Below are positions 123 to 16,994 of a DNA stretch of 32,000 bases, piece after piece. Source of the stretch: Halomicronema hongdechloris C2206 (GTDB taxonomy: Bacteria > Cyanobacteriota > Cyanobacteriia > Phormidesmidales > Phormidesmidaceae); assembly GCF_002075285.3 (NCBI RefSeq), contig NZ_CP021983.2, positions 4,680,001 through 4,712,000 of the forward strand, given 5' to 3'. Position 1 is the stretch's first letter. The number at the start of each line of letters is the position of its first letter. The notes beneath the pieces were generated by a model. The model had not been told where the DNA came from and made no database searches. It saw nothing but the letters and a program-made list of their open reading frames with translations. The translations under genes and the position numbers were made by a program.

Positions 123-2717
123 ATGCGCCCCGCCGCTCATCTCCTCAGCCTCGCCACCCTCACCGCCCTGTTTATTCCTGTTATCCAGGTCGCTGCCACC
201 CAGATTCCGGAGACATTTCAAAAGCCTCAAGATCCAGAGCAACCACAAGGCAATCCATTACTCCTAGATCAACAGCCCCTCTCAGAACGTCAGGCAGAGG
301 CGAACAGATTACGTCAGCAAGGTTTTGAACAGTACAAAGCCAGACAGTTTCAGGCAGCACGTGAGTCCCTAGAGCAAGCGCTGGTCATTTATCGAGATTT
401 GGAAGACCGGAAACGAGAAGGACAAATGCTGGGCAGTTTAGGGATTATCCACAGCAATCTAGGGCAATATCGACAGGCCATTAGCTATTACGAGCAGCAA
501 CTGTTGGTTACCCGCGAAATTGGCGATCGCGTAGGAGAGAGTGATGCTCTCGGCACCTTGAGCAATGTGTACCAAACTTTGGGAGACGATCAACAGGCGA
601 TTAACTTGCTGGAACAAGCGTTATCTGTTGCTCGGGAAATTGGCGATCGTCTGAGAGAAGGAAGTTCTCTTAATGGGCTAGGGGTTGCCTACAAAGATCT
701 TGGTAATTATTGGCAGGCCATCGCCTTCTATGAGCAAGCTTTGGCAATTTATCGCGAAATTGATGAACTTTTCGGTGAAGCAGAAGTTCTAGGAAATCTG
801 GGTGTAGCTTACGGACTGCTGGGCGATCATCGACAAGCAATTAACCTCCACGAGCAGCAGCTAGCCCTTCACGAGCAGCAGCTAGCAATCACTGGCGACA
901 TCTATCATCACCGTGGATTAGGACGTGCTCTTAGCAGTTTAGGCAATGCTTACTACAGTCTTGGCAACTATCAACAAGCTATTGGTTTTTATGAGCAAGG
1001 ATTAGCTGTTAAACGTCAAACTGGCGATCGCCACGGCGAAGGAAACACCCTGGCAAATTTAGGTAGACTATTTGACGCCCAAGAACAGCCTGAATTGGCC
1101 ATTGTTTTTCTTAAGGCTTCGGTCGAAGTACGCGAGTCCATTCGCAGTGGTATGCGAGACCTCGATCCAGACCTACAAAAATCTTATTTAGATACTGTAG
1201 CGAGCACATATCGCCTGCTAGCTGACCTCCTTCTCCAACAAGACCGCATTATGGAAGCCCAGCGGGTACTGGACTTGCTGAAGGTGCAGGAACTCGACGA
1301 CTACATTCGCGGCGTTGAGCGTACCAGCGAAACCGAAGCAGGGGTTGACTTTCTGCGGCCTGAGGAGACGATTTTGGCCCGGTACGATGCTTTGCAAGAA
1401 TCCGCCATTGCTGCTGGCCAAGAACTCGAAGACCTCAAGGCTATTCCCCGAGAACAACGTAGTGAAGAGCAGGTACAGCGCATTGCCCAACTCACGGACT
1501 TACTGGACGACATCAACGGCGACTTCCGCGACTTTGCCCGCAGTCCCGAAATTCTCAAGCTGATTGATGAATTGAACTTCGAAGCTCGGGAAGCCAGCCT
1601 CAGTCTCAATCAACTCGATCGCCTTCGCGACGAACTCCAGCAGCTCAACGCCGCCATCTTCTATCCCCTCATCCTGGACGATCGCCTGGAGTTGGTGATT
1701 ACCGTGCCCGACTCGCCCCCGCTGCGACGAACTGTTCAGGTGTCTCGCGAGGAGCTAAACGCGGCAATTCTAGAATTCCGCACCGCACTCACCCACCCAG
1801 GTTCTGACGCGGAAACGCCTGCCCAACAGCTTTACGACTGGCTGATCCGTCCTCTGGAAGCTGACTTAGGGGCAGCCGGAGTCGAAACCCTCATCTACTC
1901 CCCCGATGGGCAACTGCGCTACATTCCCCTCGCTGCCCTGCATGACGGTGAGCAATGGCTGATCCAGCAGTACCGCATCAACAACATCACCGCCGAATCT
2001 CTCACCGACCTGACCGAGAGCGATACCCCTCAGCCCAGCATTCTGGCTGCTGCCTATGCGGACCCCTCCCTGATCCATGAGCCGGAGGTGAACGGCACCT
2101 CTTATACATTTCAGGGCTTACCCGGTGCCGGGGCCGAAGTCGCCACCCTCCCCACCGAGACCAAATTCCTCGACGAAGCCTTTAGCCTGGATTCGGTGCG
2201 GCCATTGATGGACGAGTACAGCATTCTGCACTTTGCCACCCATGCCGCCTTCGTTCCCGGCGTACCCGAAGATTCCTTCATTCTGTTTGGCAATGGCGAC
2301 ACGCCCACCCTGCGAGATGTGGAAGACTGGTCGTTGAACGGCGTTGAGCTGGTGGTGCTGAGCGCTTGCGAAACCGGGGTGGGCGGCCTGGGCAACGGCG
2401 AAGAAATTTTGGGACTGGGCTATCAGTTTCAGGTGAGTGGGGCTAGGGCGGTGATGTCGTCCCTGTGGAAAGTCAGTGACCAGGGCACCCAGGTCTTGAT
2501 GACGGAGTTTTACGCTGCCCTCGGTCAGGGCATGACCAAGGCGGAGGCCCTGCAGCGAGCCCAGCAGGCGTTGATCGCCAATGACCTCAGTCTGGTCGGC
2601 GGTGGGCGCGGCACCATTGATGTCATTAGCACCGAAACCGGACAACCCCTCACCGGCAACAATCTCAGCCATCCCTACTACTGGGCATCGTTTATCCTCA
2701 TTGGCAACGGGTTGTGA
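123..2717 (+). CDS. Secreted TPR-repeat / CHAT-domain (caspase-like protease fold) protein
   Basis: 864-aa ORF. The N-terminus has a hydrophobic signal-like segment (MRPAAHLLSLATLTALFIPVIQVAAT). Tandem TPR units show the recurring pattern Y.QAI.(F/Y)YEQ.L...REIGDR.GE. The C-terminal region has the CHAT-type His/Cys dyad contexts ILHFATHA and VVLSACETG. Confidence 0.85.
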   Translation: MRPAAHLLSLATLTALFIPVIQVAATQIPETFQKPQDPEQPQGNPLLLDQQPLSERQAEANRLRQQGFEQYKARQFQAARESLEQALVIYRDLEDRKREGQMLGSLGIIHSNLGQYRQAISYYEQQLLVTREIGDRVGESDALGTLSNVYQTLGDDQQAINLLEQALSVAREIGDRLREGSSLNGLGVAYKDLGNYWQAIAFYEQALAIYREIDELFGEAEVLGNLGVAYGLLGDHRQAINLHEQQLALHEQQLAITGDIYHHRGLGRALSSLGNAYYSLGNYQQAIGFYEQGLAVKRQTGDRHGEGNTLANLGRLFDAQEQPELAIVFLKASVEVRESIRSGMRDLDPDLQKSYLDTVASTYRLLADLLLQQDRIMEAQRVLDLLKVQELDDYIRGVERTSETEAGVDFLRPEETILARYDALQESAIAAGQELEDLKAIPREQRSEEQVQRIAQLTDLLDDINGDFRDFARSPEILKLIDELNFEAREASLSLNQLDRLRDELQQLNAAIFYPLILDDRLELVITVPDSPPLRRTVQVSREELNAAILEFRTALTHPGSDAETPAQQLYDWLIRPLEADLGAAGVETLIYSPDGQLRYIPLAALHDGEQWLIQQYRINNITAESLTDLTESDTPQPSILAAAYADPSLIHEPEVNGTSYTFQGLPGAGAEVATLPTETKFLDEAFSLDSVRPLMDEYSILHFATHAAFVPGVPEDSFILFGNGDTPTLRDVEDWSLNGVELVVLSACETGVGGLGNGEEILGLGYQFQVSGARAVMSSLWKVSDQGTQVLMTEFYAALGQGMTKAEALQRAQQALIANDLSLVGGGRGTIDVISTETGQPLTGNNLSHPYYWASFILIGNGL

Positions 2718-2891: not shown

Positions 2892-3875
2892 TCAGGATAA
2901 TTTGCGAGTCTCCCCATGCGTTTTCAAAAATTCCATGATTTCTTCGTAGAAAGGTTTACCCTGGCCGCGGCTGTCGGTAGCGGTTGCTAGCAGGGCCAAC
3001 GTTTCGACAAACGATTCGCGCACCGATTCCATCACGATCGCCATCAGGGGAGCAAGGTCGTCTTGCGATCGCTGCCCCTGAATAATCGCCTCTAGGTATC
3101 GCTGGCGTTGCTGGGTAGGAATAATCGCAATCGGAAATCCGGCCCGCATCAGGAGTAAATTCATCAGCAGTCGTCCGGTGCGCCCATTCCCATCGCGAAA
3201 GGGATGGATAGAGACAAATCGGTAGTGAGCCTCTGTTGCCGCTTCGACGGGATGCAACCGGCTTGATTCGGTTATTAACCACTGCACAAACTCTGTCATC
3301 AGCTCTGGCAACAAATAGTGCGGTGGATAGACATGCTCTGTTCCGGCAGCTTTGACATCGAGCTGGCGATACTGCCCGGCTTCAGTCGGCGCAATCTGCC
3401 GCATAATCAGCGCGTGGATCTGTCGAATTTCCCATTCGCCAATGGGAGACTCGGCCTGAGCCAGGGTTTCCACGTAATCGATCGCCTCTTTATGCCCGAC
3501 CACTTCTAGATGCTCAATTAGGGTTTTGCCCCCAACCGCAATGCCCTTTGCCAGCACCAACTCGGTTTCGTTTTGCGTTAGGGTATTGCCCTCGATCGCG
3601 TTGGAGTTATAGGTAAAGCGCACGTCATACCGCTGCTTCAGCTCTGCCAGCACGGCAGGAGACAATGGCCGAAAGCTGTCGAGCCATCCTTTGAGTTGAT
3701 CTAATTGAGCAAGCTGAGCAGCAATATCCATCGGCATGGCGGGCACTAGCAGTTGAGACACCAGGGCATCGATGCGCCAATGCGGATGGGCTTTGAGCAG
3801 CAGCAGCAGGGTATCAAATAGCTCCGTGGCAGTAGCCCTTTGAGACTTTACTGTGAGCGATCGCACCGTTTCCAT
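2892..3875 (-). CDS. Fic family protein (AMPylase-type, class II with intramolecular inhibitory helix)
   Basis: Canonical Fic motif HPFRDGNGRTGR. An upstream (S/T)xxxE(G/N) inhibitory motif is present as SNAIEGN. I prefer the ATG at 3875 (METVRSL...) over the TTG-initiated extension to 3929 given in the track. Confidence 0.85.
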   Translation of the reverse strand: METVRSLTVKSQRATATELFDTLLLLLKAHPHWRIDALVSQLLVPAMPMDIAAQLAQLDQLKGWLDSFRPLSPAVLAELKQRYDVRFTYNSNAIEGNTLTQNETELVLAKGIAVGGKTLIEHLEVVGHKEAIDYVETLAQAESPIGEWEIRQIHALIMRQIAPTEAGQYRQLDVKAAGTEHVYPPHYLLPELMTEFVQWLITESSRLHPVEAATEAHYRFVSIHPFRDGNGRTGRLLMNLLLMRAGFPIAIIPTQQRQRYLEAIIQGQRSQDDLAPLMAIVMESVRESFVETLALLATATDSRGQGKPFYEEIMEFLKTHGETRKLS

Positions 3876-3992
3876 CCATATCGTTATCCTACAGCCCTCG
3901 CCCCGTCGCTGGATGAGAACAGCCCCCAAGAATTCAGCCGGTCAACTCCAGGATTCCCCCATGGCTAAACCATGCTGTGAAGTGAACCCCAC

Positions 3993-4322: not shown

Positions 4323-5709
4323 TGGCGTTCAGCTGTCCTTGGAGCAGCCAAATGTGGCTGGAGTGACGGGCCCGGAAGGTGCTGGTCACAATCGTGAAGA
4401 TGCCGGTTGGAGCGACAGCCAGCTTTTGCATCAACAACCCCTGCAGGCTGCCATGGATGCCCAAGTTAGGATCATCGGTCCCCGGTACAATGGCGGGGGC
4501 ACTGAAGGTTTGACCATTATCCTCAGATAGGGTTAGCCCCAGTCCGTGAGGGCGATGTCCCCCTTCTGAAAACAGATCCCACAGCACATACAGGCGATCA
4601 TTACCGTCTAGGGCAACCTCTGGAAAACTGACACTGGCAAAGTCTTGGTCGTGATGGCCAGTGATGTTTTGGGGCTGGCTGAATCTGGCGTTTCCCAACG
4701 GTAGTTGGGCATAGCGAATGTGATAGCGGCGAAAACGGCCCCTGGGGCTTTCGGCATAGACCAGATGCAGGGTTCCCCCAGAATCAATAGCAATTGCAGG
4801 GGCATCTGAATGGCCATTACTGTCGTGGACCACCTGGGGCGGGGCAAACGACCGTCTCAGGTCGTTAGAGCGGGTGACATAGATGTCGGCATTGTCATCG
4901 TCGCCTACGGCCCAGGCTAAAAATACGGTGCCATCTCCGGCTACCGCCAGGGTAGGGCCGCGAGCCGGTGCCCCCGCTTCACCGGCAGTGACGATGGTCT
5001 GGGGTGGGGAAAACCGCTTGCCGCCATCGCTGGAATAGCTGAGACGCAGATTGCCTTCGTATTCTGTCCAGGCGGCATAGAGAGCGCCCTGGGGGCCGCG
5101 GGCCAAGGCAAAACTGCCATTGCTCCAGCGTTCAGCGGAAAGGCGACCCTTCCCTGCCCCGGCTCGGGTATTTGAGAGGTTGAGGGGCTGGCTGAAGGTC
5201 TGGCCGCCATCAGTTGAGCGGGCAAAGAAAATCTCTCCTCCGTGGGAGCCGCCGGAGAAGACGATATCCTGCCACAGTAGATAGATATTCTGGGCGGCTT
5301 CACCGTGGATGATGAGTTTAGGCAGCCAGGAAAAAATACCTGGACTCCTCGATACATTGATCGGGGCACTTAGGCGGGGCTGCCCATCCGGTTCATAGAT
5401 CTGTAAGAAGATGTCTTGCTCAGCCTGATTTGCCCAGGCCACCCCAACGGTGCCTGTAGCAGTGAGGGCAACTGTCGGGTCGTCAACATAGCGAAACTCA
5501 GAGGCATTCATCTGCCAGGGGCCGCGAATGGCTTCTCCCTGGGCTACCTCACGCCTAGTCTGCCAAGTAATATCAGGTGTATCAGCAGGGCTTTGCCTGC
5601 CCTGGAAATCAGTCTTGGTTACGGAGGGAGACCAGGCACAGCTGGCCGCTAGTGCGGATAGCACCAGTCCCCCTAACCTAGCGGTGGCCATGGGCCATGT
5701 CCCATCCAT
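4303..5709 (-). CDS. BNR/Asp-box repeat (sialidase-like beta-propeller) lipoprotein
   Basis: 468-aa ORF. Asp-box motifs are STDGGQTFS, SSDGGKRFS and SEDNGQTFS. The N-terminal signal has a lipobox-like LAASC. Confidence 0.75.
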   Translation of the reverse strand: MDGTWPMATARLGGLVLSALAASCAWSPSVTKTDFQGRQSPADTPDITWQTRREVAQGEAIRGPWQMNASEFRYVDDPTVALTATGTVGVAWANQAEQDIFLQIYEPDGQPRLSAPINVSRSPGIFSWLPKLIIHGEAAQNIYLLWQDIVFSGGSHGGEIFFARSTDGGQTFSQPLNLSNTRAGAGKGRLSAERWSNGSFALARGPQGALYAAWTEYEGNLRLSYSSDGGKRFSPPQTIVTAGEAGAPARGPTLAVAGDGTVFLAWAVGDDDNADIYVTRSNDLRRSFAPPQVVHDSNGHSDAPAIAIDSGGTLHLVYAESPRGRFRRYHIRYAQLPLGNARFSQPQNITGHHDQDFASVSFPEVALDGNDRLYVLWDLFSEGGHRPHGLGLTLSEDNGQTFSAPAIVPGTDDPNLGIHGSLQGLLMQKLAVAPTGIFTIVTSTFRARHSSHIWLLQGQLNATSPAPP

Positions 5710-5776
5710 AGACGACTCCAGAATCGCGCGCGTTTGTTAGCCACTTCCATCTTAAAGAGCCTGACACTGTGCCCCA

Positions 5777-7534
5777 TTACCCCTGAAATTGCTGGGCGTA
5801 GAACTGGGCGTAACGATTGCCTTGGGCCAGTAATTCATCGTGGTTGCCGGACTCTACGATTTGTCCCTGTTCTAGGACTAAGATGCGATCGGCGCGGCGT
5901 ACCGTGGCCAGGCGATGGGCAATGATGAAAACGGTGCGATGGCCCTTTCGGACAGGTCTTCGACCATCGTACATCAGCCGTTCCAGAGCTTCTTGCACCA
6001 GGGCTTCTGACTCGGAATCTAGGGCCGAGGTAGCCTCATCCAGGATTAGAATCCGCGGATCCAGCAACACCGCTCGAGCGATGGCCAGACGTTGACGCTG
6101 GCCCCCAGACAGATTTACCCCCCGTTCCCCTACCCAAGTGTGATAACCCTGGGAAAACTGGCAGATAAAGTCATGGGCATTGGCGATCTTAGCTGCTGCT
6201 TGCACTGCCTCCAGATCAAATTGGCGTTGCCCGAAGGCAATATTTTGGGCGATGGTGCCAGAGAACAGGATGGTTTCCTGGGGCACGATGCCGATTTGCT
6301 GCCGCAGACTCTTCAGGGTTACTGTGCGAATGTCGATGCCATCAATCAAAATCTGGCCCGCCTGGGGATCGTAGAAGCGGGGCAATAGATTCACCAGAGT
6401 AGTTTTACCAGCGCCTGAGGGACCTACCAGGGCAATGGTTTCCCCTGGCTGAACCAGCAGGTCTAGCTGTTGCAGCACTGGCTGGCCGGGGGTATAGGCA
6501 AAACTGACCCGGCGATATTCCACCTTACCGGTGACTGCTGGCAAGGGCTGGGCCTGGGGAGCCTCCACCACCGCTGGCTGCAGAGCAAACAATTCGAAGA
6601 TGCGATCGATGGAGGCTTCTCCCTGCTTGAACTGACCGTAGTTATCGATGGTGTGATTAACCGGGTCGATCAACATCAGGGCAGCGGCCACATAGCTGCC
6701 GAAGGCCTGACCGGTAAGGTTTGCCTGGGAAATTTGCCAACTGCCCATGAGCAGGATAATCACCACCAGCAGGGCATAGAGCAATCCCACCACCGGGAAC
6801 TGCACGGCTTGCAGCCAAGCGGCTCGATAGCGGGCCTGGCGGTTGCGTTCTGCTGCCTGGGAGAACCGCTCTACCTCGTAATCTTCGGCGGCAAATGCCT
6901 GCACCAGGCGGATGCCACTGACCACTTCCGTCACCAGGGACGAGAGATCGGCCACCACGTTCTGGCTGTGGCGGGAAATCCGCACCATGCGATTGCCAAA
7001 CCACCCCGCCAACAAAGCCAATAACGGCACTAGCACCAGAGCCGTCAGAGTCAGCTGCCAGTTGAGGTAGAGCATGTAGGCCAGCACCACCACCAGTTGT
7101 AACGCCGACGGCACGAAGTCGTGAAATAACTTATTGACCACCTCGCCGATGCGATCGATATCCTCCGTCAGGCGATAGGCCAGATCTCCGGTTTGAGAGC
7201 GCTCGAAGTAGGCCAGGCTGAGGCGATGTAAATGGCGATAGACCTGCTGGCGCAGTTGGTAGACGATCTCCAGGGCGGCCTTGGCCATGAGGGCATCCTG
7301 GCCGTATTGGCCCAGCTTTTGCACCACAAACCCGACCATGGTGATAGCAGAAATCTGAGCCAGCTGCCGCACTTGGCCTTGCACTACTAGGGCCAGCATT
7401 TTCCCGGCTAGCCAGGCCAGCACTGGCCAGAAGGCCACAAATACCAGAGTACAGAGCAGAGCCTGGGCGATGGTCAACCATTGCTGGCGAATCTGGGGCA
7501 GTAATTGCCAGTAGTTATTGCGGCGCCGTTTCAC
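5777..7534 (-). CDS. ABC exporter, fused permease/ATPase (MsbA/multidrug-like)
   Basis: 585-aa ORF with an N-terminal six-helix-type TMD. Motifs present: Walker A GPSGAGKTT, signature LSGGQRQR, Walker B ILILDEATS and H-loop IIAHRL. Confidence 0.9.
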   Translation of the reverse strand: MKRRRNNYWQLLPQIRQQWLTIAQALLCTLVFVAFWPVLAWLAGKMLALVVQGQVRQLAQISAITMVGFVVQKLGQYGQDALMAKAALEIVYQLRQQVYRHLHRLSLAYFERSQTGDLAYRLTEDIDRIGEVVNKLFHDFVPSALQLVVVLAYMLYLNWQLTLTALVLVPLLALLAGWFGNRMVRISRHSQNVVADLSSLVTEVVSGIRLVQAFAAEDYEVERFSQAAERNRQARYRAAWLQAVQFPVVGLLYALLVVIILLMGSWQISQANLTGQAFGSYVAAALMLIDPVNHTIDNYGQFKQGEASIDRIFELFALQPAVVEAPQAQPLPAVTGKVEYRRVSFAYTPGQPVLQQLDLLVQPGETIALVGPSGAGKTTLVNLLPRFYDPQAGQILIDGIDIRTVTLKSLRQQIGIVPQETILFSGTIAQNIAFGQRQFDLEAVQAAAKIANAHDFICQFSQGYHTWVGERGVNLSGGQRQRLAIARAVLLDPRILILDEATSALDSESEALVQEALERLMYDGRRPVRKGHRTVFIIAHRLATVRRADRILVLEQGQIVESGNHDELLAQGNRYAQFYAQQFQG

Positions 7535-7653
7535 GCAAACTCCCAGTCAGACTACGCCCCATTACGCTATCAGGTTTCTGCTCTACACCGGTCTGACTTG
7601 TCCCGAAGGCTGAGCCTTGGTTCAATGACAGAGCAGTGCAGTGAGAGGGCGCT

Positions 7654-8235
7654 ATGGTGACGGTGGTTGTGGCAACGGGAAATCCAGGCAAGCTGAAGGA
7701 GTTGCAAGCTCATTTGGCCGATTTGGCATGGCAACTGACCCTGAAGCCCCCTGAACTAGAGGTGGAAGAAACTGGTCAGACCTTCTTGGAAAATGCCCGC
7801 CTCAAGGCAGCTCAGGTGGCCCAGGCCACAGGACAATGGGCCATTGCCGATGACTCTGGTCTAGAGGTGGATGCCCTGGGGGGTGCCCCTGGCATCTATT
7901 CGGCTCGCTACGCTGATTCTGACGCCAGCCGCATCGAGCGGGTACTACGTGAGTTAGGCGACCGGCCTGAGCGGGGGGCTCAGTTTGTCTGTGCCTTAGC
8001 CTTGTCTCGTCCCGATGGCACCATTGCCCTAGAAACGGAGGGCATCTGTCGAGGTGAATTGCTTCTGGCGCCTCGGGGCATAGGTGGCTTCGGCTATGAT
8101 CCCATCTTTTATTTGCCAGCTTTGGGCTTGACGTTTGCAGAAATGACATCGGCCCAGAAAGCAGAGCATAGCCATCGAGCCATTGCCTTCCGGCAGTTGC
8201 TGCCTCAGCTCAAGGCCCATCCCAGCCTAACCTAA
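7654..8235 (+). CDS. rdgB: Non-canonical purine NTP pyrophosphatase (dITP/XTP pyrophosphatase, RdgB/HAM1 family)
   Basis: 193-aa ORF. It shows ATGNPGKLKE near the N-terminus, then ADDSGLEVDALGGAPGIYSARY, GFGYDPIF and KAEHSHRA, all typical of RdgB. A purine-rich GAGAGGG sits upstream of the ATG. Confidence 0.9.
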   Translation: MVTVVVATGNPGKLKELQAHLADLAWQLTLKPPELEVEETGQTFLENARLKAAQVAQATGQWAIADDSGLEVDALGGAPGIYSARYADSDASRIERVLRELGDRPERGAQFVCALALSRPDGTIALETEGICRGELLLAPRGIGGFGYDPIFYLPALGLTFAEMTSAQKAEHSHRAIAFRQLLPQLKAHPSLT

Positions 8236-8238
8236 GTT

Positions 8239-8269
8239 AAGAGGCATCTACCCTGGGCAGATGCCTCTT
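8239..8269. terminator. Hairpin between convergent rdgB and psbY (possible bidirectional terminator)
   Basis: Perfect 11-bp stem AAGAGGCATCT / AGATGCCTCTT with a 9-nt loop. It begins 4 nt after the rdgB stop. The flanking U-tracts are weak (GCTGTTT on the plus side). Confidence 0.5.
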
Positions 8270-8353
8270 GCTGTTTAGGCTAAGCGTATCAGGGACTCGA
8301 TATTCTCAGGCACCCCTGCAAGAGGGATGCCGAGATGAGTCCTGAGAGATCCC

Positions 8354-8473
8354 TTAGGCTTCCTTATTCATAAATTCCTGCAGTTGGGACATTGCTACCT
8401 TACCAATGTTGAAAACGGCCCAACCGCCTGCGATAAGAATAGGAAGCAACACAATGAGAACACGCCCGTCCAT
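8354..8473 (-). CDS. psbY: Photosystem II protein Y
   Basis: Absent from the ORF track because it is under 60 aa. The minus-strand ATG is at 8471-8473 and the TAA at 8354-8356. Translation is [39 protein letters not shown] (39 aa, one TM helix). GGAGG lies 8 nt upstream. It matches the PsbY pattern I recall: MDxRV...P.LIA..WA..NIG..A..QLQ. Confidence 0.75.
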
Positions 8474-8851
8474 TCGAAATACCTCCTTCCCGACAGAAAG
8501 CTTAAACGGCTGTCACAATTCTCTCATAAATTTTCCTCGGCAGATTGGGGGATTTCCCTCCATCTGAAGACAATGGGCGGATTAAGGGGGGCTAAGGCCG
8601 AGATGAGCGTAATCGAGACGGCAGGCTATCCCAGCCATTGAGAATGGTTGGGTTACTGCCGGCATGTTGAGTCGGCATCAAGTGGTACTATTGGTTACGC
8701 TTTTGTCTACGGTTCATGGTAATACACCGGCAAATCTTGCCAGTACGCTATTGATTTTGCTGATAGATTGACTGCTTCCAGGAAATTGTGGTGATCTGGG
8801 ATGATGGCTGCTCTCGGTTGCTGTCCTACTGTTCAAGTCATCAGGTAGCTC

Positions 8852-10524: not shown

Positions 10525-10908
10525 CTATGAAGGAGCTGTTTTCTGCAAGTCCTCCAGGGCACTGATAACAAAGGTGGCGGCAGGATGTTTCACCAACTGC
10601 TTTAGGGTGGCCGTGCCTCCGGCTTTCAGGGCACTAAACAACCGCTGCAGCAGGGGCGGATGCTGCTGAATCTGTGCCACCGCTTCGGTGGCGACGGCCA
10701 TGTGGTTAGTCACCCCTTGCCCCGGATGCTGGGTCGAAAGCTGCTGCAACAGGATTTGCAAATCCGCTGACACAGCCATGAGTGACTGCTCGTCAGCCGT
10801 ATCCATATGCTGCTGGATCTGATTCCCCACGGCGATCTGGCCGCTGTTGTCATGGGCATTGATATGGGCATTGATGGCCCCAGGATCGGGAGTATTCGCA
10901 GAAGTCAT
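10525..10908 (-). CDS. Small helical protein sharing the N-terminal AHI..DNSGQIAVG.I.Q tag with the upstream STAND NTPase
   Basis: ORF 10525..10938. I prefer the internal ATG at 10908 (MTSANTPDPG...) because GGAG lies 7 nt upstream of it. It sits 62 nt downstream of the STAND gene on the same strand. The C-terminal ~85 aa look all-helical (LQILLQQLSTQHPGQG...LLQRLFSALKAGGTATLKQLVKHPA). Confidence 0.65.
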   Translation of the reverse strand: MTSANTPDPGAINAHINAHDNSGQIAVGNQIQQHMDTADEQSLMAVSADLQILLQQLSTQHPGQGVTNHMAVATEAVAQIQQHPPLLQRLFSALKAGGTATLKQLVKHPAATFVISALEDLQKTAPS

Positions 10909-10970
10909 GGTGGATCTCCTCAAAAAGATGGACAACATTACAGTGTTTGATCGGTTTTTAGGGGGGGTGG

Positions 10971-13900
10971 TTAAATGAGATCCCCACCGCCAGCACCATT
11001 GCCATTAGACGATGGGGCACCCTCGCTGCCACCAGCACCATTGGTACTGCCTGATCCCCGGCCGGACGACCCAGTCGACCCAGGATCTGGAGGGCTTTGA
11101 GTGTCCTGCGGCAACTGCATGGTGCCTTGAAGCGGCACGGTCAGCGGGCTATTGGGATCATTGCTGGTGATGGTCAGGGACTCAATCTGCAGGGGAGCAT
11201 CTCCCTGGTTCCGAATCGTCAGCTCCTGTTGGCGACCATTGCCCACCAACGCTTCATAGGGCACAGACCCAAAGTCTATCTCTGCAGGCTGAGCCACGGC
11301 TAAAGGAGCGGTGACGGGCTCAGAGGGGGGCTCTGTCACCGTGACGGCAACGGTGGCGGTGGCGGTGCGGTGACCGGCTTGCACCTGATAGGTAAAGCGA
11401 TCCGCGCCCACGAACTGTTCAGACAGATAGGTGACAGATCCGTCGTCATTGCGAGTCACGCTGCCGTGCTCAGGCGCCGACACGGATAACAACTCCAGGG
11501 GCTCTCCCGCCGGATCTCGATCGTTGTCTAGGGGGAAGAGGGTCACGGCTTGCCCGACTTCGGTGGTGATCTGGTCATCTGTCACCTGGATCTCTGGTGG
11601 TGGTAGTACTGTAATGGCAATGGTGGCGGTGTCTGTTTGGGAGCCGTCAGTGAGGGTGTAGGTGATGCGATCGCGTCCGGAGAAATCAGGCTCGGGGGTA
11701 TAGGTAATGGTGCCCGCGGCCTCATCGATGGCTAGCTGGCCATGGTCTGGTGGCGTTACAGTGTCCAGCCGTAGAGTATCGCCGCGATCATTGTCCAGGG
11801 GACGAATCTCCACGGCCTCTCTGTAGGCGGTGTCAACGGCATCATTCACGGCCTCTAAGGGGGCAGCCACGACGGAGACTTCGATCAACGCCTGCTGACG
11901 CTGCTCGCCATTGCTAGCCCCATACTCGAAGGTGTCGAGGCCAGAGAAGCCGGGGTCAGGCGTATACCGCAGGCGATTCGAGCCTAGACGCTCTAGGCGG
12001 CCATGGGCTGGTGTGGCCACCTCTTCCAGCCTCAGGGGTTGCCCCAAGGGATCTCGATCATTGGCTAGGGGCGCGATCTCCACTGGCTGTTCCTGGGGAG
12101 TCTCCACGAAGTCATGGTTGAGTTGCAGGGGAACCGTAGGCAAGACCTCTATCTGAACCGCGGCCGCGGCCCTGCGATCGCCATCACTGACCGTGTAGAT
12201 AAAGCCATCCTGCCCGGAAAACTGGGTTGCTGGCCGGTAGAGGAGACTGCCATCGCTCTGGCGTTCTACTCGACCGTGGGCTGGGGCCGTGACCTCAGTA
12301 ATCTGCAGTGCCTGGCCCCTAGGATCGCGATCATTGTGCAGAGGCGTAATCCTGACCGGCTGGCCGTAGGCGGTCTGGACAAAATCATCAAACGCTTGAA
12401 TCGGCTCAGGAGCTGCCACCGCCACCTCAACCAGCCCCTTGGCCGTATGATCACCATCGCTAACGGTGTACTCAAACCGCTCTGAGCCGGAGAAGCGGGG
12501 GGCGGGCGTATAGGTCAGGCTACCGTCGCCGTGCACCTGCACCCGCCCCTGCAAAGGCTGCTGCAGCGCCACGATGGCCAGGGGATTGCCATCACGATCT
12601 CGATCATTCTGCAAAGGGACAATCTGTACTGCCTGACCATAGGCGGTTGTGACAATATCCGGTAATGCTTGAGGCGGATGAGAAGGCCTCACGGGAGGAC
12701 TAGGAGGCTGAGGAGACGGGGAAAAACTGGGGCCACTACCAGAGGATTCGGTCTCAGGAGAGGCAAAAGGTTGAATGCTAATATCCGCCAATTGGTCTTC
12801 GATCTCATTCGGATCTAAGGAAGGACTGTCTTCAAACGGTGTCGACTCTGGGCCAAGGTTTTTAATTGCCTCGGCCGCCATTACAGCTAAGGCTGTGGTG
12901 GTGCCACCGGCCAGCAGCAGCAGCGGTAGGTTTTTGCCCGTGAGTAGGGACCAGCGCTGGGGCGGCGCTGGACTCGATGGCATCGGTTGGCAGCGCAGTG
13001 CCGCCAAGCTTTGGCTGAGGTCGTCAGGGTCACTGTCCAGGAAGTCCTCTGCCGGTGATGGGTCGACGTCGATGTCCTCCTCGATAGGATCGGCGTCTTT
13101 CTCATCAGAGTCAGCATTAGGCCCCAAGAGTAACTCCAGGTTATGGCGGGTGACGGCGATGGCATCGGCATTGCCCAGGCTCTGACGCAGTTCTAGGGCC
13201 TCCGTCAGGGCGCTCAGGGCAGTGTCTCGATCCCCAAGGCACAGGGCTCGTGTCCCCAACTGATGCAACGCCCATGCGGTCTGGGCAGTGTCTGCCAGGG
13301 CTCGGGCTGCCTGCAGCAGGATGCCCAGCAGCAAGAACCAGGCTCCCCAGCGATGCGATCGCATCAGCTGCGGCTCGATGGCCCGAGCCAAAATAATGGC
13401 CTCCTGATAATGGCCTTGATCCACGGCCCATGCCGCCAGATACTGCATGGGATCAATGTCTTCTGGTGGAATCGCCTCGCTGGGCAGCTGCCCTACCCAA
13501 GTGACATAGCGCTCCAGTAAGACCTGCCGGCTCTGCTCAATGGGCCAGCGTTGGGCCAAGCCCTCCGCCAGATTCGGGGCCAGGGAGTAAGCATTGCCTT
13601 CTAGTTGCACCAGCCGCAGCTGCTCCAGGCTCTGCAGCACCTGGCGGGTCTCCGGCAGCGAGGAGATCACGGGTGATGACAGGCGAGCTAGCTGCTCGAC
13701 GGTCATGGCCAGGGCCTCCAGGGCAGTCAGGATAGCTAGGATGAGCTGCTGCTGCCGCTTACGAGTGCTAGACGCACTCAGCAGCACTCGATCTCGGGTC
13801 TTGGCAGCCTGCTGAGCCAATTTAGCCAGGGAGCGCCGCTCCTGACGATGGAGGGCACTAGCCTGCAGAATCCGCAGGGGATGCCCCTCCAGGTGTTGGC

Positions 13901-14621
13901 ATAGAGCCTCAGCGTGAGCATATTCAGCGGGTCGCAGGGGACGCCCCAGATCCTGTTGCAACAAGGCCACGGCCTCCGGTAAGGGTAGACCCGATAGCGG
14001 CAATGGTCTGCCATCTCCCCCGAGGCGACGCTCTGGAGCAGTGACCAGGAACAGGCACTGGGGCATTCGGTTCAGAAGTTGCTCGATGGCGGCGGCATCG
14101 AGTTGCAGATCGTCTAAGACCACCAGGGCCTGGATGGGCTGTAGGTAATGAGCCAGCTCGTGATCGGTGGCTCGATAGGGAATATCGGTGTCGTAGAAGG
14201 CCTCAAACAGAAACTGCTCTAGGTCGGCTCGGGGCTTGCCGTGGGCCGAGACATAGACAATGCCATCGCCATAGGCCTTCCAGGTGGTGCTGTGGAGCAG
14301 ATGGCGAACTAACACCGACTTGCCAATGCCCGGTTGACCGTAGACATCGACTGACTGGTGGATGCTGAGGTGCTGTAGCGCCAGTTGCTGCGCCTGCTGT
14401 CGACCGATCAGGTGAGGAAATGGCCGCGGCAGTAACTTAACTGGTTGGGAGCGCCGAGTTACCTGAGCGGTCTGGGCAGGAGGGGCCACATTGACCAGTC
14501 CGCCATAGTTGGTGAGCTGCAGAATATGATCGCCCACGGCAATCTGGCCGCTGTTATCGCCGGTGATATGGGCCGCTATGGAGGGAACAACGGTAGGGGC
14601 AAGTTGGGGGGCCGTTGCCAT
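10971..14621 (-). CDS. Membrane-spanning NB-ARC/STAND P-loop NTPase with C-terminal cadherin-like repeat array
   Basis: 1216-aa ORF. NTPase motifs: Walker A GQPGIGKS (nt 14316..14339), Walker B LVVLDD, FLVTAPERR (sensor-1-like), LSGLPLPEAVALL and EGHPLRILQ (GxP-like). Then follow a helical TPR-like region, an acidic linker and a hydrophobic helix LPLLLLAGGTTTALAVMAAEAI (nt 12864..12929). After a Pro/Ser linker come five ~90-aa cadherin-like repeats, a beta-sandwich-like IDFGSV...LTIRNQGDAPLQI module and a Gly/Ser tail. Confidence 0.85.
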   Translation of the reverse strand: MATAPQLAPTVVPSIAAHITGDNSGQIAVGDHILQLTNYGGLVNVAPPAQTAQVTRRSQPVKLLPRPFPHLIGRQQAQQLALQHLSIHQSVDVYGQPGIGKSVLVRHLLHSTTWKAYGDGIVYVSAHGKPRADLEQFLFEAFYDTDIPYRATDHELAHYLQPIQALVVLDDLQLDAAAIEQLLNRMPQCLFLVTAPERRLGGDGRPLPLSGLPLPEAVALLQQDLGRPLRPAEYAHAEALCQHLEGHPLRILQASALHRQERRSLAKLAQQAAKTRDRVLLSASSTRKRQQQLILAILTALEALAMTVEQLARLSSPVISSLPETRQVLQSLEQLRLVQLEGNAYSLAPNLAEGLAQRWPIEQSRQVLLERYVTWVGQLPSEAIPPEDIDPMQYLAAWAVDQGHYQEAIILARAIEPQLMRSHRWGAWFLLLGILLQAARALADTAQTAWALHQLGTRALCLGDRDTALSALTEALELRQSLGNADAIAVTRHNLELLLGPNADSDEKDADPIEEDIDVDPSPAEDFLDSDPDDLSQSLAALRCQPMPSSPAPPQRWSLLTGKNLPLLLLAGGTTTALAVMAAEAIKNLGPESTPFEDSPSLDPNEIEDQLADISIQPFASPETESSGSGPSFSPSPQPPSPPVRPSHPPQALPDIVTTAYGQAVQIVPLQNDRDRDGNPLAIVALQQPLQGRVQVHGDGSLTYTPAPRFSGSERFEYTVSDGDHTAKGLVEVAVAAPEPIQAFDDFVQTAYGQPVRITPLHNDRDPRGQALQITEVTAPAHGRVERQSDGSLLYRPATQFSGQDGFIYTVSDGDRRAAAAVQIEVLPTVPLQLNHDFVETPQEQPVEIAPLANDRDPLGQPLRLEEVATPAHGRLERLGSNRLRYTPDPGFSGLDTFEYGASNGEQRQQALIEVSVVAAPLEAVNDAVDTAYREAVEIRPLDNDRGDTLRLDTVTPPDHGQLAIDEAAGTITYTPEPDFSGRDRITYTLTDGSQTDTATIAITVLPPPEIQVTDDQITTEVGQAVTLFPLDNDRDPAGEPLELLSVSAPEHGSVTRNDDGSVTYLSEQFVGADRFTYQVQAGHRTATATVAVTVTEPPSEPVTAPLAVAQPAEIDFGSVPYEALVGNGRQQELTIRNQGDAPLQIESLTITSNDPNSPLTVPLQGTMQLPQDTQSPPDPGSTGSSGRGSGSTNGAGGSEGAPSSNGNGAGGGDLI
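11334..12665 (-). repeat. Five tandem ~90-aa coding repeats (cadherin-like / tandem-95-type Ig-fold) inside the STAND gene
   Basis: Each unit follows the pattern D.V.T.(Y)GQ.V.I.PL.NDRDP.G..L.(I/L)..V..P.HG.V......G.L.Y.P...FSG.D.F.Y.(V/L)SDG; five copies are diverged at the DNA level. Confidence 0.8.
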
Positions 14622-14858: not shown

Positions 14859-15864
14859 ATGACAATGAAAGCGATGGTCATTGAGCAATTTGGCGACCCC
14901 ACGGTCTTTCAGCCAGCCGAGGTGCCAACACCAGAGATACCGGCCCACCATGTGCTGATTCGGGTGATGGCCACCAGTGTCAATCCCGTGGATGTGAAAA
15001 TCCGTCAGGGAGCGGTGGCCGCCATTGCTCCGGACTTTCCGGCGATTCTGCATGGAGATGTGGCTGGCGTGGTAGACGCCTTGGGCCAGGGAGTATCTGG
15101 CCTTGAGGTTGGCGATGAGGTCTATGCCTGTGCCGGGGGCATCAAGGGTACTGGTGGCGCCTTGGCGGAGTACATGGTGGCCGATGCCAGCTTAGTCGCT
15201 CCCAAACCCCGCAGCCTGACCATGCTGGAAGCCGCGGCTCTGCCCCTGGTCTCCATCACTGCTTGGGAAGGATTAATCGATCGGGCCCAGGTGCAAGCGG
15301 GACAGCGAGTCTTGGTCTACGGAGCCACGGGAGGGGTGGGCCATGTGGGCCTGCAGCTGGCCAAGGGAGCCGGAGCCACGGTCTATGCCATGGTGTCTAG
15401 CCCGGAGAAGGCTGCCGTTGCCCGGCAACTAGGAGCCGATGTCACCCTAAACTATCGCCAAATCCCTGTGGCAGATCTGGTGGCTCAGCACACCGAGGGC
15501 CAGGGCTTCGATGTGGTGTTTGACACCGTCGGCAACGACAATCTGCAAAACGCCTTCCAAGCGGCCCGACTCAATGGCACCGTCGTGTCTCTGGTGGCCC
15601 GTTCGCAACAGGACTTGAGTCTGCTCCACGCCAAGGGCCTGACCCTGCATCTGGTCTTCATGTTGCTGCCGCTGCTATCAGGCATCAACCGAGCCCACCA
15701 CGGCTGGATCCTGACACAGGTTGCCCAGCGGGGTAGACCAGGGGCAACTGCGGCCCCTGCTGGCGGAGCAAACCTTTACGATCGGCGATGTGGCTAAGGC
15801 CCATGCCTACCTGGAGTCGGGAACGGCGGTGGGTAAGGTAGTCCTGGCTCAATCCCTGGCTTAG
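14859..15864 (+). pseudogene. Zinc-type alcohol dehydrogenase / NADPH:quinone oxidoreductase (MDR family), interrupted by a +1 frameshift or a sequencing error
   Basis: The frame starting at 14859 gives a typical MDR N-terminus plus a Rossmann motif (VLVYGATGGVGHVGLQLAK). It becomes Arg/Pro/Gly junk after ...ILTQVAQ. The authentic-looking C-terminus VDQGQLRPLLAEQTFTIGDVAKAHAYLESGTAVGKVVLAQSLA* is read in the next frame from 15733 to 15864. Total length is 1006 nt, that is 3n+1. Confidence 0.75.
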
Positions 15865-16994
15865 TAATCTACCCCGCGCTTCAGGTCTACTCCCTTTTCG
15901 GCATAGTGCTTGTGGCAAAACACCTCGGAGTGGACACTGGAGAGATCGAAATAGGTAGGCGGGTTTTTGCAGCGGCCGGTGATAATCACCTCGGTATCAC
16001 GGGGCTTACGCAGCAGGGCCTGGACAATGGGTTCCTCTGGCAAGAGTTCCAGATCTACGGTGGGGTTGAGTTCATCCAGGATGATGGTCTTGTAGAGGCC
16101 GGAGGCGATGGCGGTGCGGGCAATCTCCCAGCCCCGTTCGGCTTCCACATAGTCGATCTCTTGCTGCTGGCCCCGCCAGACGATGGCGTCGCGGCCACAG
16201 CGTTGATGGTCCACCAGGTCGGGATAGCTCTTGCGCAGGGCGGCGATGGCGGCATCTTCCGTATAGCCCTGCCCCCCTTTCAGCCACTGCATGATCAACA
16301 CCCGGTGGGACTTGTCCTGACTGATGCCGCGACCGATGGCTTGCAGGGCTTTGCCCAGGGCACTGGTGGACTTGCCCTTGCCGTCGCCGGTGTAGATCTC
16401 GACCCCTTCGATGCCGGGATAATCCTCAGGCCGGTAATGGCAGGGCTTCATCTCGGAATGGAGGTCGGCGATGTCGAGGAGGGCTGGGGGGGCGCCGCGA
16501 CCGGTGGCGATGATCTCGAGCTGCTCGGGTTTACGGCGCAGGGTACGGACCACGTCGTCGATGGGCAGGAGTCCCAGATCCAGGACTGGATTCAGCTCAT
16601 CTAAAACCACCACGGAATAGAGGCCGGAGGCGATGGCTCCCTTGGCCACATCCCAACCGCGCTGGGCCTCTTGCCGGTCGAAGCGGGTGATCTCCCCGGG
16701 ACCGAAGAATTCGGCGCGGCCGGTGCGGACTTGGTCGATCAAGTGGGGAAAGCCCCGTTGCAGGGCTTCGATGGCGGCGTCTTCGTCGTAGGTGCGACCG
16801 GGACCCTTGAGAAACCGTAGTAGCAGTACTCGACTCTCCATAAACTGCTGAATGCCCAGGCCAATGGAGCGCAGCACCACCCCCAGGGCCACTTGAGACT
16901 TGCCCTTGCCGTCGCCGTCATAGACATGGATCTGGCCAGTGAGCCGCTCGCTGTTGCCCTGGGCTGTCCGAATGCCGATGCCGGTTTTAACCAT
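15861..16994 (-). CDS. cobO: Tandem two-domain CobA/CobO/BtuR-family cob(I)yrinic acid a,c-diamide adenosyltransferase-like protein
   Basis: 377-aa ORF made of two clearly homologous halves. Each half has a GDGKGKS P-loop, (F/W)LKG..G.(Y)(D/T)EDAAI.AL, ERGW(D/E).A..AIASGLY and (V/I)LDELNP..DL.LLP. Confidence 0.75.
   Translation of the reverse strand: MVKTGIGIRTAQGNSERLTGQIHVYDGDGKGKSQVALGVVLRSIGLGIQQFMESRVLLLRFLKGPGRTYDEDAAIEALQRGFPHLIDQVRTGRAEFFGPGEITRFDRQEAQRGWDVAKGAIASGLYSVVVLDELNPVLDLGLLPIDDVVRTLRRKPEQLEIIATGRGAPPALLDIADLHSEMKPCHYRPEDYPGIEGVEIYTGDGKGKSTSALGKALQAIGRGISQDKSHRVLIMQWLKGGQGYTEDAAIAALRKSYPDLVDHQRCGRDAIVWRGQQQEIDYVEAERGWEIARTAIASGLYKTIILDELNPTVDLELLPEEPIVQALLRKPRDTEVIITGRCKNPPTYFDLSSVHSEVFCHKHYAEKGVDLKRGVDY

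Follow-up and report, generated by a model that had tools for sequence, protein, structure and literature searches.

The analysed window, a 32,000-nucleotide stretch of contig NZ_CP021983.2 of Halomicronema hongdechloris C2206, carries two neighbouring minus-strand genes whose products share a short, nearly identical peptide close to their N-termini, which we call the tag. The upstream gene encodes a large NTPase and the downstream gene a small protein, referred to here as the partner; their features are compiled in Table 1. The partner gene starts 62 nt past the stop codon of the NTPase gene, and neither a terminator-like site nor a promoter was found between the two. The small ORF was listed with 137 aa (10525..10938). 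The start used here is the second ATG (10908), which is preceded by the Shine-Dalgarno sequence GAGGAG at 10916-10921. At a related locus, L001, where the gene order is conserved and the partner is 80% identical, the gene begins at the equivalent ATG, located 12 nt past the stop of its NTPase gene; the database entry of the window partner (P0001) also has 127 aa.

Table 1. Coordinates in the window, strand and supporting evidence of the features of the NTPase gene and the partner gene.
Feature	Position	Strand	Residues and evidence
NLR-like STAND NTPase gene, 1216 aa, predicted to be membrane-anchored	10971..14621	-	ORF; Pfam; AlphaFold2; Foldseek
Full NTPase N-terminal tag, SIAAHITGDNSGQIAVGDHILQLTNYGGLVNVAPP	14478..14582	-	residues 14-48; tag HMM 50 bits, iE 1e-13
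NB-ARC-type NTPase module with helical/TPR arm	13110..14474	-	residues ~50-504; pLDDT >90
Predicted single transmembrane helix, LPLLLLAGGTTTALAVMAA	12873..12929	-	residues 565-583; Kyte-Doolittle 19-mer peak 1.76
Five Big_9/cadherin-like repeats and Ig-like domain	11127..12677	-	Pfam, NCBIfam
Partner gene, 127 aa (P0001)	10525..10908	-	ORF; Shine-Dalgarno; L001 orthologue
Partner N-terminal tag, INAHINAHDNSGQIAVGNQIQQ	10810..10875	-	residues 12-33; tag HMM iE 1.5e-5
A2 domain	10537..10797	-	residues 38-124; four-helix bundle, AlphaFold2 pLDDT >90

From its N-terminus onwards, the NTPase is composed of the tag, an NB-ARC-type NTPase with the Walker A motif GQPGIGKS, a TPR region, a transmembrane helix, five Big_9/cadherin-like repeats, and an Ig-like domain. 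The Pfam matches of the protein include Big_9 (8.8e-85) and TPR_12, while those to AAA_16 and NB-ARC are weak and fall under the gathering cut-offs; homologues of the NTPase carry precomputed NB-ARC annotations. The AlphaFold2 model of residues 1-520 (pTM 0.83) matched the structure of Apaf-1 (3sfz) in Foldseek with an E value of 3e-11 and a TMq of 0.55, and further structural matches were obtained with CED-4, plant NLR resistosomes, and the STAND-TPR protein 6mfv. The first-pass annotation had labelled this gene a STAND NTPase, and these matches bear the label out: judging from the modelled NB-ARC-type fold, the helical arm, and the repeat sensor, the receptor is a STAND NTPase of the NB-ARC/AP-ATPase (NLR-like) clade.

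The predicted transmembrane helix lies between the NTPase-TPR part, which would be cytoplasmic, and the C-terminal cadherin-like repeats, and among the 98 NTPase homologues of 600 aa or more, 88 show a hydrophobic 19-mer at the equivalent position that is stronger than this one. In the repeat region, Pfam recognises Big_9, Cadherin_5, and Cadherin_4, each in 5 stretches, together with a HYDIN/VesB-like Ig domain, and NCBIfam reports the tandem-95 repeat and choice-of-anchor D. The Big_9/cadherin-like and Ig region is presumed to be an extracytoplasmic sensor.

Translation of the minus strand between positions 14514 and 14576 of the window gives AAHITGDNSGQIAVGDHILQL (NTPase residues 16-36), which we compared with the partner tag, numbered in Table 1 according to the 127-aa protein. 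Both contain DNSGQIAVG, the run of nine identical residues reported in the first-pass annotation. Among the window ORFs of 120 aa or longer, which form 1275 pairs, no other pair has a common substring of this length and the runner-up reaches 6; when the small protein was shuffled 5000 times, a match of nine residues came up 0 times. A chance origin of the match is thus excluded. The near-identity of the underlying DNA was also confirmed, given that the 23-nt string AACAGCGGCCAGATYGCCGTGGG has exactly 2 copies in the window (10826-10848 and 14533-14555, both on the minus strand) and none in 100 shuffles, and that the wider repeat extends over 43 nt with 84% identity (10809-10851 versus 14516-14558). 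Within the nine identical codons, the window copies differ at 3 synonymous sites, and the L001 gene pair likewise shows 3 synonymous differences, partly at other sites. Because of this synonymous divergence in both pairs, the identity of DNSGQIAVG is one kept in the protein and does not stem from recent copying of the DNA; ongoing gene conversion is ruled out on the same grounds.

The partner tag of the window corresponds to the first half only of the NTPase tag. Hydrophobic and polar residues alternate in the tag, and a set of 65 unique tag segments is enriched in I (x3.15), N (x2.9), V (x2.0), G (x1.7), and Q (x1.5) and depleted in R (x0.12), L (x0.30), P (x0.38), and K (x0.46). In the AlphaFold2 model, the NTPase tag has a pLDDT of 35-45 and is undocked from the folded body, with a tentative hairpin at 27-29/32-34 (pLDDT below 50), and partner residues 10-35 also have a pLDDT <50, the partner tag likewise being undocked. 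Disordered and undocked tags are what would be expected if the motif folds only upon assembly.

The distribution of the tag was analysed in related loci collected with a 10-sequence alignment. In 78 of 107 NTPase homologues, the N-terminus is matched by the tag HMM; the median start of these matches is residue 10, and the tag-bearing homologues come from Cyanobacteria, Chloroflexota, Actinomycetota, and Acidobacteriota. When the 15,510 six-frame ORFs of 81 loci were scanned with the same HMM, the additional matches (iE < ~0.01) were found nearly all in a same-strand downstream gene, which was mostly the next gene. Such a matching tag was present in ~26 of the ~55 loci with enough flanking sequence, and a tagged neighbour is absent from about half of these loci. 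The Smith-Waterman tag scores of the partners range from 48 to 77, whereas those of other neighbours range from 25 to 40; LpxD-like hexapeptide-repeat proteins, an acyl carrier protein, and an aminotransferase, with scores of 35-51, were dismissed by inspection as false partners. The first-pass annotation had cautioned that the motif might be of low complexity, ubiquitous, and not enriched among neighbouring gene pairs, which is not what the scan returned.

The domains joined to the tag in the partners are varied: a Peptidase_C14 caspase with a Zn-ribbon, CHAT, TIR_2, EAD7, two kinases with a helical domain, and two helical domains, A1 and A2. The tag is N-terminal in the window, L001, A1, EAD7, CHAT, and TIR partners, internal in the kinase partners, and near the C-terminus in the caspase-type partners only. 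A profile search with a 48-aa partner tag matched 6 short fragments and nothing else, phage and plasmid records searched by tblastn with the consensus tag gave only noise (E>=2), and a literature string search for SGQVAVG and its variants found no paper.

The tags of one locus also vary together. Tag identity is 0.49 between an NTPase and its own partner versus 0.39 with partners of other loci, a difference equalled in 1 of 20000 permutations (n=12); in the other sets, the corresponding counts were 243 of 20000 (n=8) and 0 of 20000 (all 20 pairs). Individual loci illustrate this agreement: an 'IGDVSxxSQVA' insertion is present in both genes at L027, L050, and L049, the pair of L018 shares 'NxNFxGxNSGQ', that of L053 shares 'SQIVIGDxNNV', and L045 has a tandem duplication of the tag in both genes, where the duplicated tag gives a weak match to Bactofilin, a beta-helix polymer. 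Taken with the conservation of the tag, the pairing of adjacent genes, and the interchangeable partner domains, this co-variation lends strong comparative support to one half of the proposal made in the first-pass annotation, namely that the peptide is a recognition or co-assembly module. At the level of sequence comparison, the tag is most likely a co-evolving docking tag that links a sensor to an output protein.

The output of the window pair would be the A2 domain of the partner, which AlphaFold2 models with helices at residues 38-60, 66-81, 84-105, and 111-124. Pfam, NCBIfam, and PADLOC gave no match to this domain, a sequence comparison with the PDB gave none either, and Foldseek found nothing in the PDB below an E value of 0.8. 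A2 has no hydrophobic helix (Kyte-Doolittle <1.2), and since it also has no structural match, it contains no recognisable executioner of the Bell/HeLo type. It is most likely an adaptor or an oligomerisation-activated module, and not an enzyme. A comparison of A1 and A2 as one domain reached an hhalign probability of 4.9%, and we take them as unrelated. A literature string search for the A2 motifs NHPAASF and SALKAGG found no paper.

The interpretation that we favour, and consider on balance probable, is that the peptide found in both proteins acts as a homotypic assembly tag and joins a membrane-spanning NLR-like receptor, by amyloid-like stacking, to the product of the downstream gene. The receptor would have its tag, NB-ARC-type NTPase, and TPR region in the cytoplasm, one transmembrane helix, and the cadherin-like repeats outside. 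A signal perceived at the extracytoplasmic repeats or at the TPR arm would lead to a nucleotide-dependent oligomerisation of the NTPase, which would bring the flexible N-terminal tags together in a cluster. The clustered tags would then adopt a stacked beta structure (a beta-arch or beta-solenoid of amyloid-like character), recruit the matching tag of the partner by direct contact, and template its folding, so that the C-terminal domain of the partner, the four-helix A2 in the window, would be concentrated or switched on. Such templating from receptor to partner would follow the logic of the fungal NWD2/HET-S pairs and of the bacterial BASS pairs.

The pairing, the modular partners, and the co-variation fit equally well with specific docking of a non-amyloid kind, in which the tags would engage by beta-strand augmentation or in a small hetero-oligomeric beta-sheet, as an adaptor following the 'EAD principle' and with no self-propagating templating. 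Bona fide adaptor domains (EAD7) among the partners and a window partner with only half of the receptor tag are in keeping with this alternative. The composition of the tag, in contrast, is close to that of amyloid signalling motifs, the tags are disordered in the monomer models, and the double tandem duplication at L045, with its weak bactofilin likeness, suggests stackable beta units. None of these three points is decisive, and we regard docking of this kind as rather unlikely, although a serious competitor of amyloid-like stacking.

The co-variation would be equally expected if both tags were ligands of one third surface, such as the TPR groove of the NTPase, as two ligands of a single site would co-vary identically. 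TPR domains bind extended peptides, and no effector domain can be recognised in the small partner; the receptor tag would then be auto-inhibitory, and the partner tag would compete with it as an activator, an inhibitor, or an anti-toxin-like regulator. However, AlphaFold2 leaves the tag off the TPR/NTPase body (residues 1-48 at pLDDT 35-45, >90 elsewhere), and in other loci the tag delivers caspase, TIR, and CHAT domains, for which effector recruitment is a better fit than competition, so that a common third surface appears improbable. The N-terminal position of both window copies and the 43 nt of DNA at 84% identity might suggest a signal for targeting, secretion, or processing (the other half of the first-pass proposal) or else a stretch without meaning, of low complexity or recently duplicated, but this is very improbable and the targeting or processing idea is not supported, given that the tag is near the C-terminus of the caspase partners and internal in the kinase partners, has no hydrophobic core or signal-peptide features, co-varies pairwise as a generic signal is not expected to do, is conserved across phyla with synonymous divergence, and has its extra matches among the scanned ORFs concentrated in genes downstream of the NTPase.

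The reading of the peptide as a homotypic assembly tag has its closest precedents in the bacterial motif families BASS1-10 (Dyrka et al. 2020, bioRxiv 10.1101/2020.01.06.895854) and in the fungal NWD2/HET-S-type motifs. As in these systems, an NB-ARC/TPR NLR-like protein carries an N-terminal motif of 20-35 residues that recurs in the product of a collinear, usually adjacent gene, and cognate copies are the most alike. With BASS1-10 the tag also shares a composition rich in G, N, Q, V, and I and poor in K, P, and L, an occurrence in multicellular or filamentous bacteria, and an association with effectors that include caspase/CHAT and TIR domains. The core strings GQVA, GQIA, AVGK, AVGN, AIGN, QVAVG, and QIAVG are found in 0 of the 346 BASS1-10 pairs of Table S2 of Dyrka et al. 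by string search, and VAVG occurs in BASS6 only and in a different context, the resemblance of BASS6 (ASGDRAVAVGHNQG...) to the tag being a loose one and no more; by this comparison of core strings, the tag is outside the described families BASS1-10.

The arrangement of the window pair differs from these families as well. Here, the NLR gene comes first and the partner gene after it, whereas the Bell gene in Dyrka et al. seems to lie upstream, to judge by the overlapping Bell/NLR ORF pairs given there. The effector-side copy of an amyloid signalling motif is C-terminal by definition, while the tag of the window partner is N-terminal and precedes the output domain, which is not Bell, the helical membrane-targeting effector of the Bell/HeLo type that is the commonest case among amyloid signalling motif pairs. 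Unlike in those families, the receptor is predicted to cross the membrane through one helix and to carry repeats outside the cytoplasm, and the amyloid nature of its tag is a proposal.

The BASS11 motif of the E. coli Bab/Agp system, which forms amyloid and transmits an antiphage signal (Ibarlosa et al. 2024, bioRxiv 10.1101/2024.11.07.622273), is, like the tag, a short motif common to the products of adjacent genes. Signalling by amyloid templating has been demonstrated experimentally for BASS11. The few BASS11 residues named in the text of that preprint (I87-G88-S89-V90, Q92, D99, and N100) are out of register with the tag when compared by eye. The EADs of NTP-dependent conflict systems (Kaur, Burroughs, Iyer, Aravind 2020, PMC7159879) follow the same principle, with a module that the core NTPase has in common with a neighbouring gene's product, where it is fused to variable effectors; their adjacent copies are closest to each other, as are those of the tag, and homotypic coupling has been predicted in the same study. 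Some of the tagged partners combine the tag with EAD7. EADs are, however, small globular domains, mostly alpha-helical, while the tag is a beta-prone peptide of ~22-35 residues that is disordered in AlphaFold2 models, and the Pfam EAD models matched neither the N-terminus of the NTPase nor the small protein. In view of these comparisons, we regard the tag system as a new variant of the NLR-linked paired assembly motifs.

The A2 domain extends well beyond the tagged loci. A word-indexed search with the small protein matched only itself and one 80% relative, and an exhaustive HMMER search recovered an A2 family of 658 relatives at E<=1e-3 in a 50%-cluster library. Only three proteins that combine the tag with A2 were found (those of the window and L001, and P0249), and the tag was found in 0 of 80 further A2 loci. 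In other loci, A2 stands behind peptides of other sequence, which again match a neighbour: among metagenome loci, a small protein made of a peptide and A2 shares its N-terminal peptide with an adjacent protein in 16 of 31, compared with 13 of 186 control loci. It is possible, and we propose it tentatively, that small proteins with a variable, beta-prone N-terminal 'address' peptide and a constant A2, each wired to a neighbouring sensor by the matching peptide, form a wider and undescribed signalling grammar, of which the window pair would be one instance. The sensors may bear the matching peptide at their N- or C-terminus, and they may include NB-ARC/NACHT NTPases with transmembrane segments as well as non-NLR proteins of the CHASE2, FHA-multi-TM, TPR, and DUF6232 types.

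Fungal, animal, and bacterial immunity are linked by signalling of an amyloid or tag-templated kind, in which NLR-like receptors act on cell-death effectors. Only about eleven bacterial motif families of this type have been described, all defined with a C-terminal motif on the effector and mostly with Bell-type effectors. The tag adds a motif family that is widespread in Cyanobacteria, Chloroflexota, Actinomycetota, and Acidobacteriota, with partners that carry the motif N-terminally and with two uncatalogued helical partner domains, A1 and A2. It also adds a membrane-spanning receptor with cadherin-like repeats outside, which suggests an Apaf-1-like NTPase that senses extracellular cues. The naturally co-varying tag pairs constitute a specificity panel for the private wiring of sensors to effectors by short peptides. 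If the address peptides of the A2 proteins do work as proposed, amyloid-like or tag-templated signalling in cyanobacteria would reach beyond NLRs and would use an inverted topology, with the tag first and the output last, in which A2 would be a new output or adaptor domain.

The N-terminal peptide that the first-pass annotation had proposed to be shared by the STAND NTPase and the small protein encoded downstream proved to be real: DNSGQIAVG is common to both. No other of the 1275 pairs formed by window ORFs of 120 aa or longer has nine identical residues in a row (runner-up, 6), and 0 of 5000 shuffles attain such a match. A 23-nt DNA string occurs twice in the window, with none expected, and the two tag copies form a repeat of 84% identity across 43 nt. 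The same nine residues are common to the pair of L001, another genome locus. The nine identical codons of the window pair show three synonymous differences; those of the L001 pair also show three, some of them at different positions, which argues that the tag has been conserved by selection at the protein level and is no fresh copy.

Positions of the features discussed, in the window and at other loci
Feature	Position	Strand	Remark
NTPase tag core, residues 16-36 of the 1216-aa ORF 10971..14621	window 14514-14576	minus	AAHITGDNSGQIAVGDHILQL (translation)
Partner tag, next ORF downstream of NTPase	window 10810-10875	minus	INAHINAHDNSGQIAVGNQIQQ (translation)
Most likely partner start, ATG	window 10908		gives 127 aa
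GAGGAG	window 10916-10921		ahead of partner ATG
Hydrophobic helix, NTPase residues 565-583	window 12873-12929		just after TPR arm
TPR-CHAT protein	window 123-2717	plus	CHAT E 1.7e-65; 8-10 kb from pair
Fic-domain protein	window 2892-3929	minus	8-10 kb from pair
377-aa protein	window 15861-16994	minus	two tandem CobA/CobO/BtuR corrinoid adenosyltransferase domains (Pfam, 2 stretches), a duplicated fusion
Tandem NTPase paralogues, near-identical tags, then one caspase partner	L003:1800-4748, 4976-7438, 7393-8556
NTPase, tag unit tandemly duplicated	L045:9890-11938
EAD7 partner, tag unit tandemly duplicated	L045:11942-12367
Near-identical tag+A1 genes, inverted, downstream of one NTPase	L050:9059-9478; L050:9739-10158	plus; minus
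NTPase and tag+A1 pair	L071:7594-10731		contig binned as archaeon 'Candidatus Nitrosopolaris'
Partner fragments P0262, P0263, P0264	L085:1364-1582
Peptide+A2 examples, metagenome (among L086-L165)	L110:2793-5300; L102:5107-6288; L154:4888-5898; L153:4856-7282

NTPase residues 1-500, used as query, retrieved 107 homologues, and 78 of these carry I-x-A-x-I-x-G-[ED]-[IV]-S-G-Q-[VI]-A-[VI]-G-N-x-I-x-Q-I-G-S-V-H-G-G-V-V-N-[IV] close to residue 10. The full two-part motif is present in the window NTPase (residues 14-48), and the small protein has its first part only. All 15,510 six-frame ORFs of 80 genome loci encoding NTPase homologues were scanned with a tag HMM, and each locus's NTPase tag was compared with its own neighbours in a second, Smith-Waterman scan. 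Nearly all extra tag matches lie in a same-strand downstream gene, usually the next one, with the kinase partners ~2.5 kb further downstream; Smith-Waterman scores were 48-77 for partners and 25-40 for other neighbours. A tagged partner was found in ~26 of the ~55 loci whose downstream sequence extends for 1.5 kb or more, and the loci come from Cyanobacteria, Chloroflexota, Actinomycetota, Acidobacteriota and Gemmatimonadota. The L003 arrangement suggests several receptors feeding a single effector, and the archaeal placement of L071 reflects horizontal transfer or else an error in binning.

Domain organisation of the tagged partners (A1 and A2, two helical partner domains)
Partner	Where found
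Tag + A1 with Gly-rich hydrophobic segment	L004/5, L011, L012, L027, L034, L044, L049, L050, L053, L071
Two kinases + tag + A1	L013, L021, L022
Peptidase_C14 caspase + full tag + Zn-ribbon	L003, L006-9, L014, L031, L032
Caspase + tag + A1	L029
Tag + EAD7	L017, L045
Tag + CHAT	L018
Tag + TIR_2	L067
Tag + A2	window, L001
Tag + A2 + CHAT	database protein P0249

When tags were compared without gaps, in windows aligned at the conserved Gly, identity was higher for own than for non-own pairs: 0.49 against 0.39 for N-terminal-tag partners (n=12; observed value reached by 1 of 20000 permutations), 0.405 against 0.349 for caspase partners (n=8; 243 of 20000) and 0.456 against 0.359 overall (n=20; 0 of 20000). 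A two-residue insertion, 'IGDVSxxSQVA', is found in both genes of L027, of L050 and of L049, the tag unit is duplicated in both genes of L045, and 'NxNFxGxNSGQ' and 'SQIVIGDxNNV' are common to both members of the L018 and L053 pairs, respectively. In the fragments P0262-P0264, 20-22 of the first 22 aligned residues equal those of the NTPases P0003/P0005; they share the start MAQPFPPxK(M)IEAQIQGxISGQVA, with an extra Met (one-residue insertion) in two, and continue as partner-type sequence, which points to recombination between the 5' ends of receptor and partner genes. The co-assembly module suggested at first pass is thus supported by the family-wide tag, the tagged downstream genes and the cognate co-variation, and the tags very probably couple NTPase and partner physically.

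Pfam finds five Big_9/cadherin-like repeats and TPR in the large protein, with AAA_16/NB-ARC matches below threshold. Its AlphaFold2 model (residues 1-520; pTM 0.83, confident across residues 50-504) resembles Apaf-1 (E 3e-11), CED-4, plant NLR resistosomes and a STAND-TPR protein in structure comparison, and the protein is an NB-ARC-type STAND NTPase. A hydrophobic helix stronger than that of the window protein occupies the equivalent place in 88 of 98 homologues, which argues that the family is a single-pass membrane receptor, with tag, NTPase and TPR predicted on the cytoplasmic side. The domains after the helix vary (cadherin-like/Big_9 in the window; LysM, choice-of-anchor D, PKD-like and others elsewhere) and are presumably extracytoplasmic.

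The L001 relative of the small partner (80% identical) starts at the same Met, 12 nt past the NTPase stop, and no terminator-like site was found between the window NTPase and partner genes. AlphaFold2 gives residues 1-35 as disordered and residues 38-124 as a confident four-helix bundle, A2, for which neither a family assignment in Pfam, NCBIfam or PADLOC nor a structural match was found; A1 and A2 were rejected as related domains (hhalign probability only 4.9%). At E<=1e-3, the 50%-identity cluster representatives include 658 relatives of A2. The domain is mostly the C-terminal module of pentapeptide-repeat proteins (30/150), and HTH, CHAT, COR-B, kinase, TIR, EAD1 and TRADD-N are further domains N-terminal to it.

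Searching metagenomes with an A2 profile yielded 80 loci, none with the window-type tag. Small peptide+A2 proteins there often have a different N-terminal peptide in common with an adjacent same-strand protein (Smith-Waterman score of at least 45 in 16 of 31 own loci and 13 of 186 control loci), and none of these peptides is in the BASS (bacterial amyloid signalling sequences) table. The matching peptide is N-terminal in NACHT + multi-TM and CHASE2 neighbours, N- or C-terminal in TPR proteins, and C-terminal in FHA + multi-TM and DUF6232 membrane proteins. A2 thus behaves like a constant output/adaptor module, with the variable peptide as its address. Tag-A2-CHAT, the many fusions and the parallel tag-EAD7 partners suggest that A2 may be an adaptor; alternatively, it could be an executioner. 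Unlike A1, A2 has no hydrophobic helix. The TPR-CHAT and Fic-domain proteins place other conflict-system-type genes near the tag pair; neither of them carries the tag or A2.

The tag is enriched in I (x3.15), N (x2.9), V (x2.0), G (x1.7) and Q (x1.5) and depleted in R (x0.12), L (x0.30), P (x0.38) and K (x0.46), the bias reported for BASS, and the duplicated L045 partner tag weakly matches Pfam Bactofilin, a beta-helix polymer (E 0.0064). The AlphaFold2 monomer models leave both tags without order and without docking on the folded parts. A homotypic assembly motif is the best supported reading, and we lean slightly towards the full amyloid-like model, all of whose functional steps we infer: on oligomerisation of the NTPase, the receptor tags would come together in a stacked beta structure, which would recruit or template the partner tag and so concentrate or switch the partner's C-terminal domain. 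Docking by ordinary beta-strand interaction is possible, if rather doubtful, and a model in which the two tags compete for some third site, a TPR groove for instance, is improbable. Set beside the cognate co-variation, a targeting or processing signal or a non-functional repeat is hardly credible.

The homotypic motif resembles BASS and NWD2-HET-S in its tag features, its pairing with an NLR-like NTPase and its caspase, CHAT, TIR and EAD7 partners, and the window pair is a variant of NLR-linked paired assembly/amyloid-type motifs. The partners match the set given for BASS11, the motif of the E. coli Bab/Agp system, which has been proven by experiment, in the text of that report (bioRxiv 10.1101/2024.11.07.622273), but the few BASS11 residues named there, on which alone the comparison was made, do not fit the tag in register. 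Tag core strings occur in none of the 346 BASS1-10 pairs listed by Dyrka et al. (bioRxiv 10.1101/2020.01.06.895854), and BASS6 is only loosely similar. The organisation is also that of effector-associated domains (Kaur et al., PMC7159879), although these are globular helical domains, unlike the tag. By definition, amyloid signalling motifs stand at the N-terminus of NLRs and at the C-terminus of effectors, whereas the tag is N-terminal in most partners; unlike described pairs, the partner gene lies downstream of the NTPase, the receptor would span the membrane, and A1 and A2 are uncatalogued.

What is unusual in this system is the N-terminal partner tag, the predicted transmembrane receptor and the uncatalogued partner domain, A2, which seems to belong to a wider peptide-addressed system. 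If the predicted topology holds, the family would be an Apaf-1-like STAND receptor sensing outside the cell, which is unusual among NLR-like proteins.
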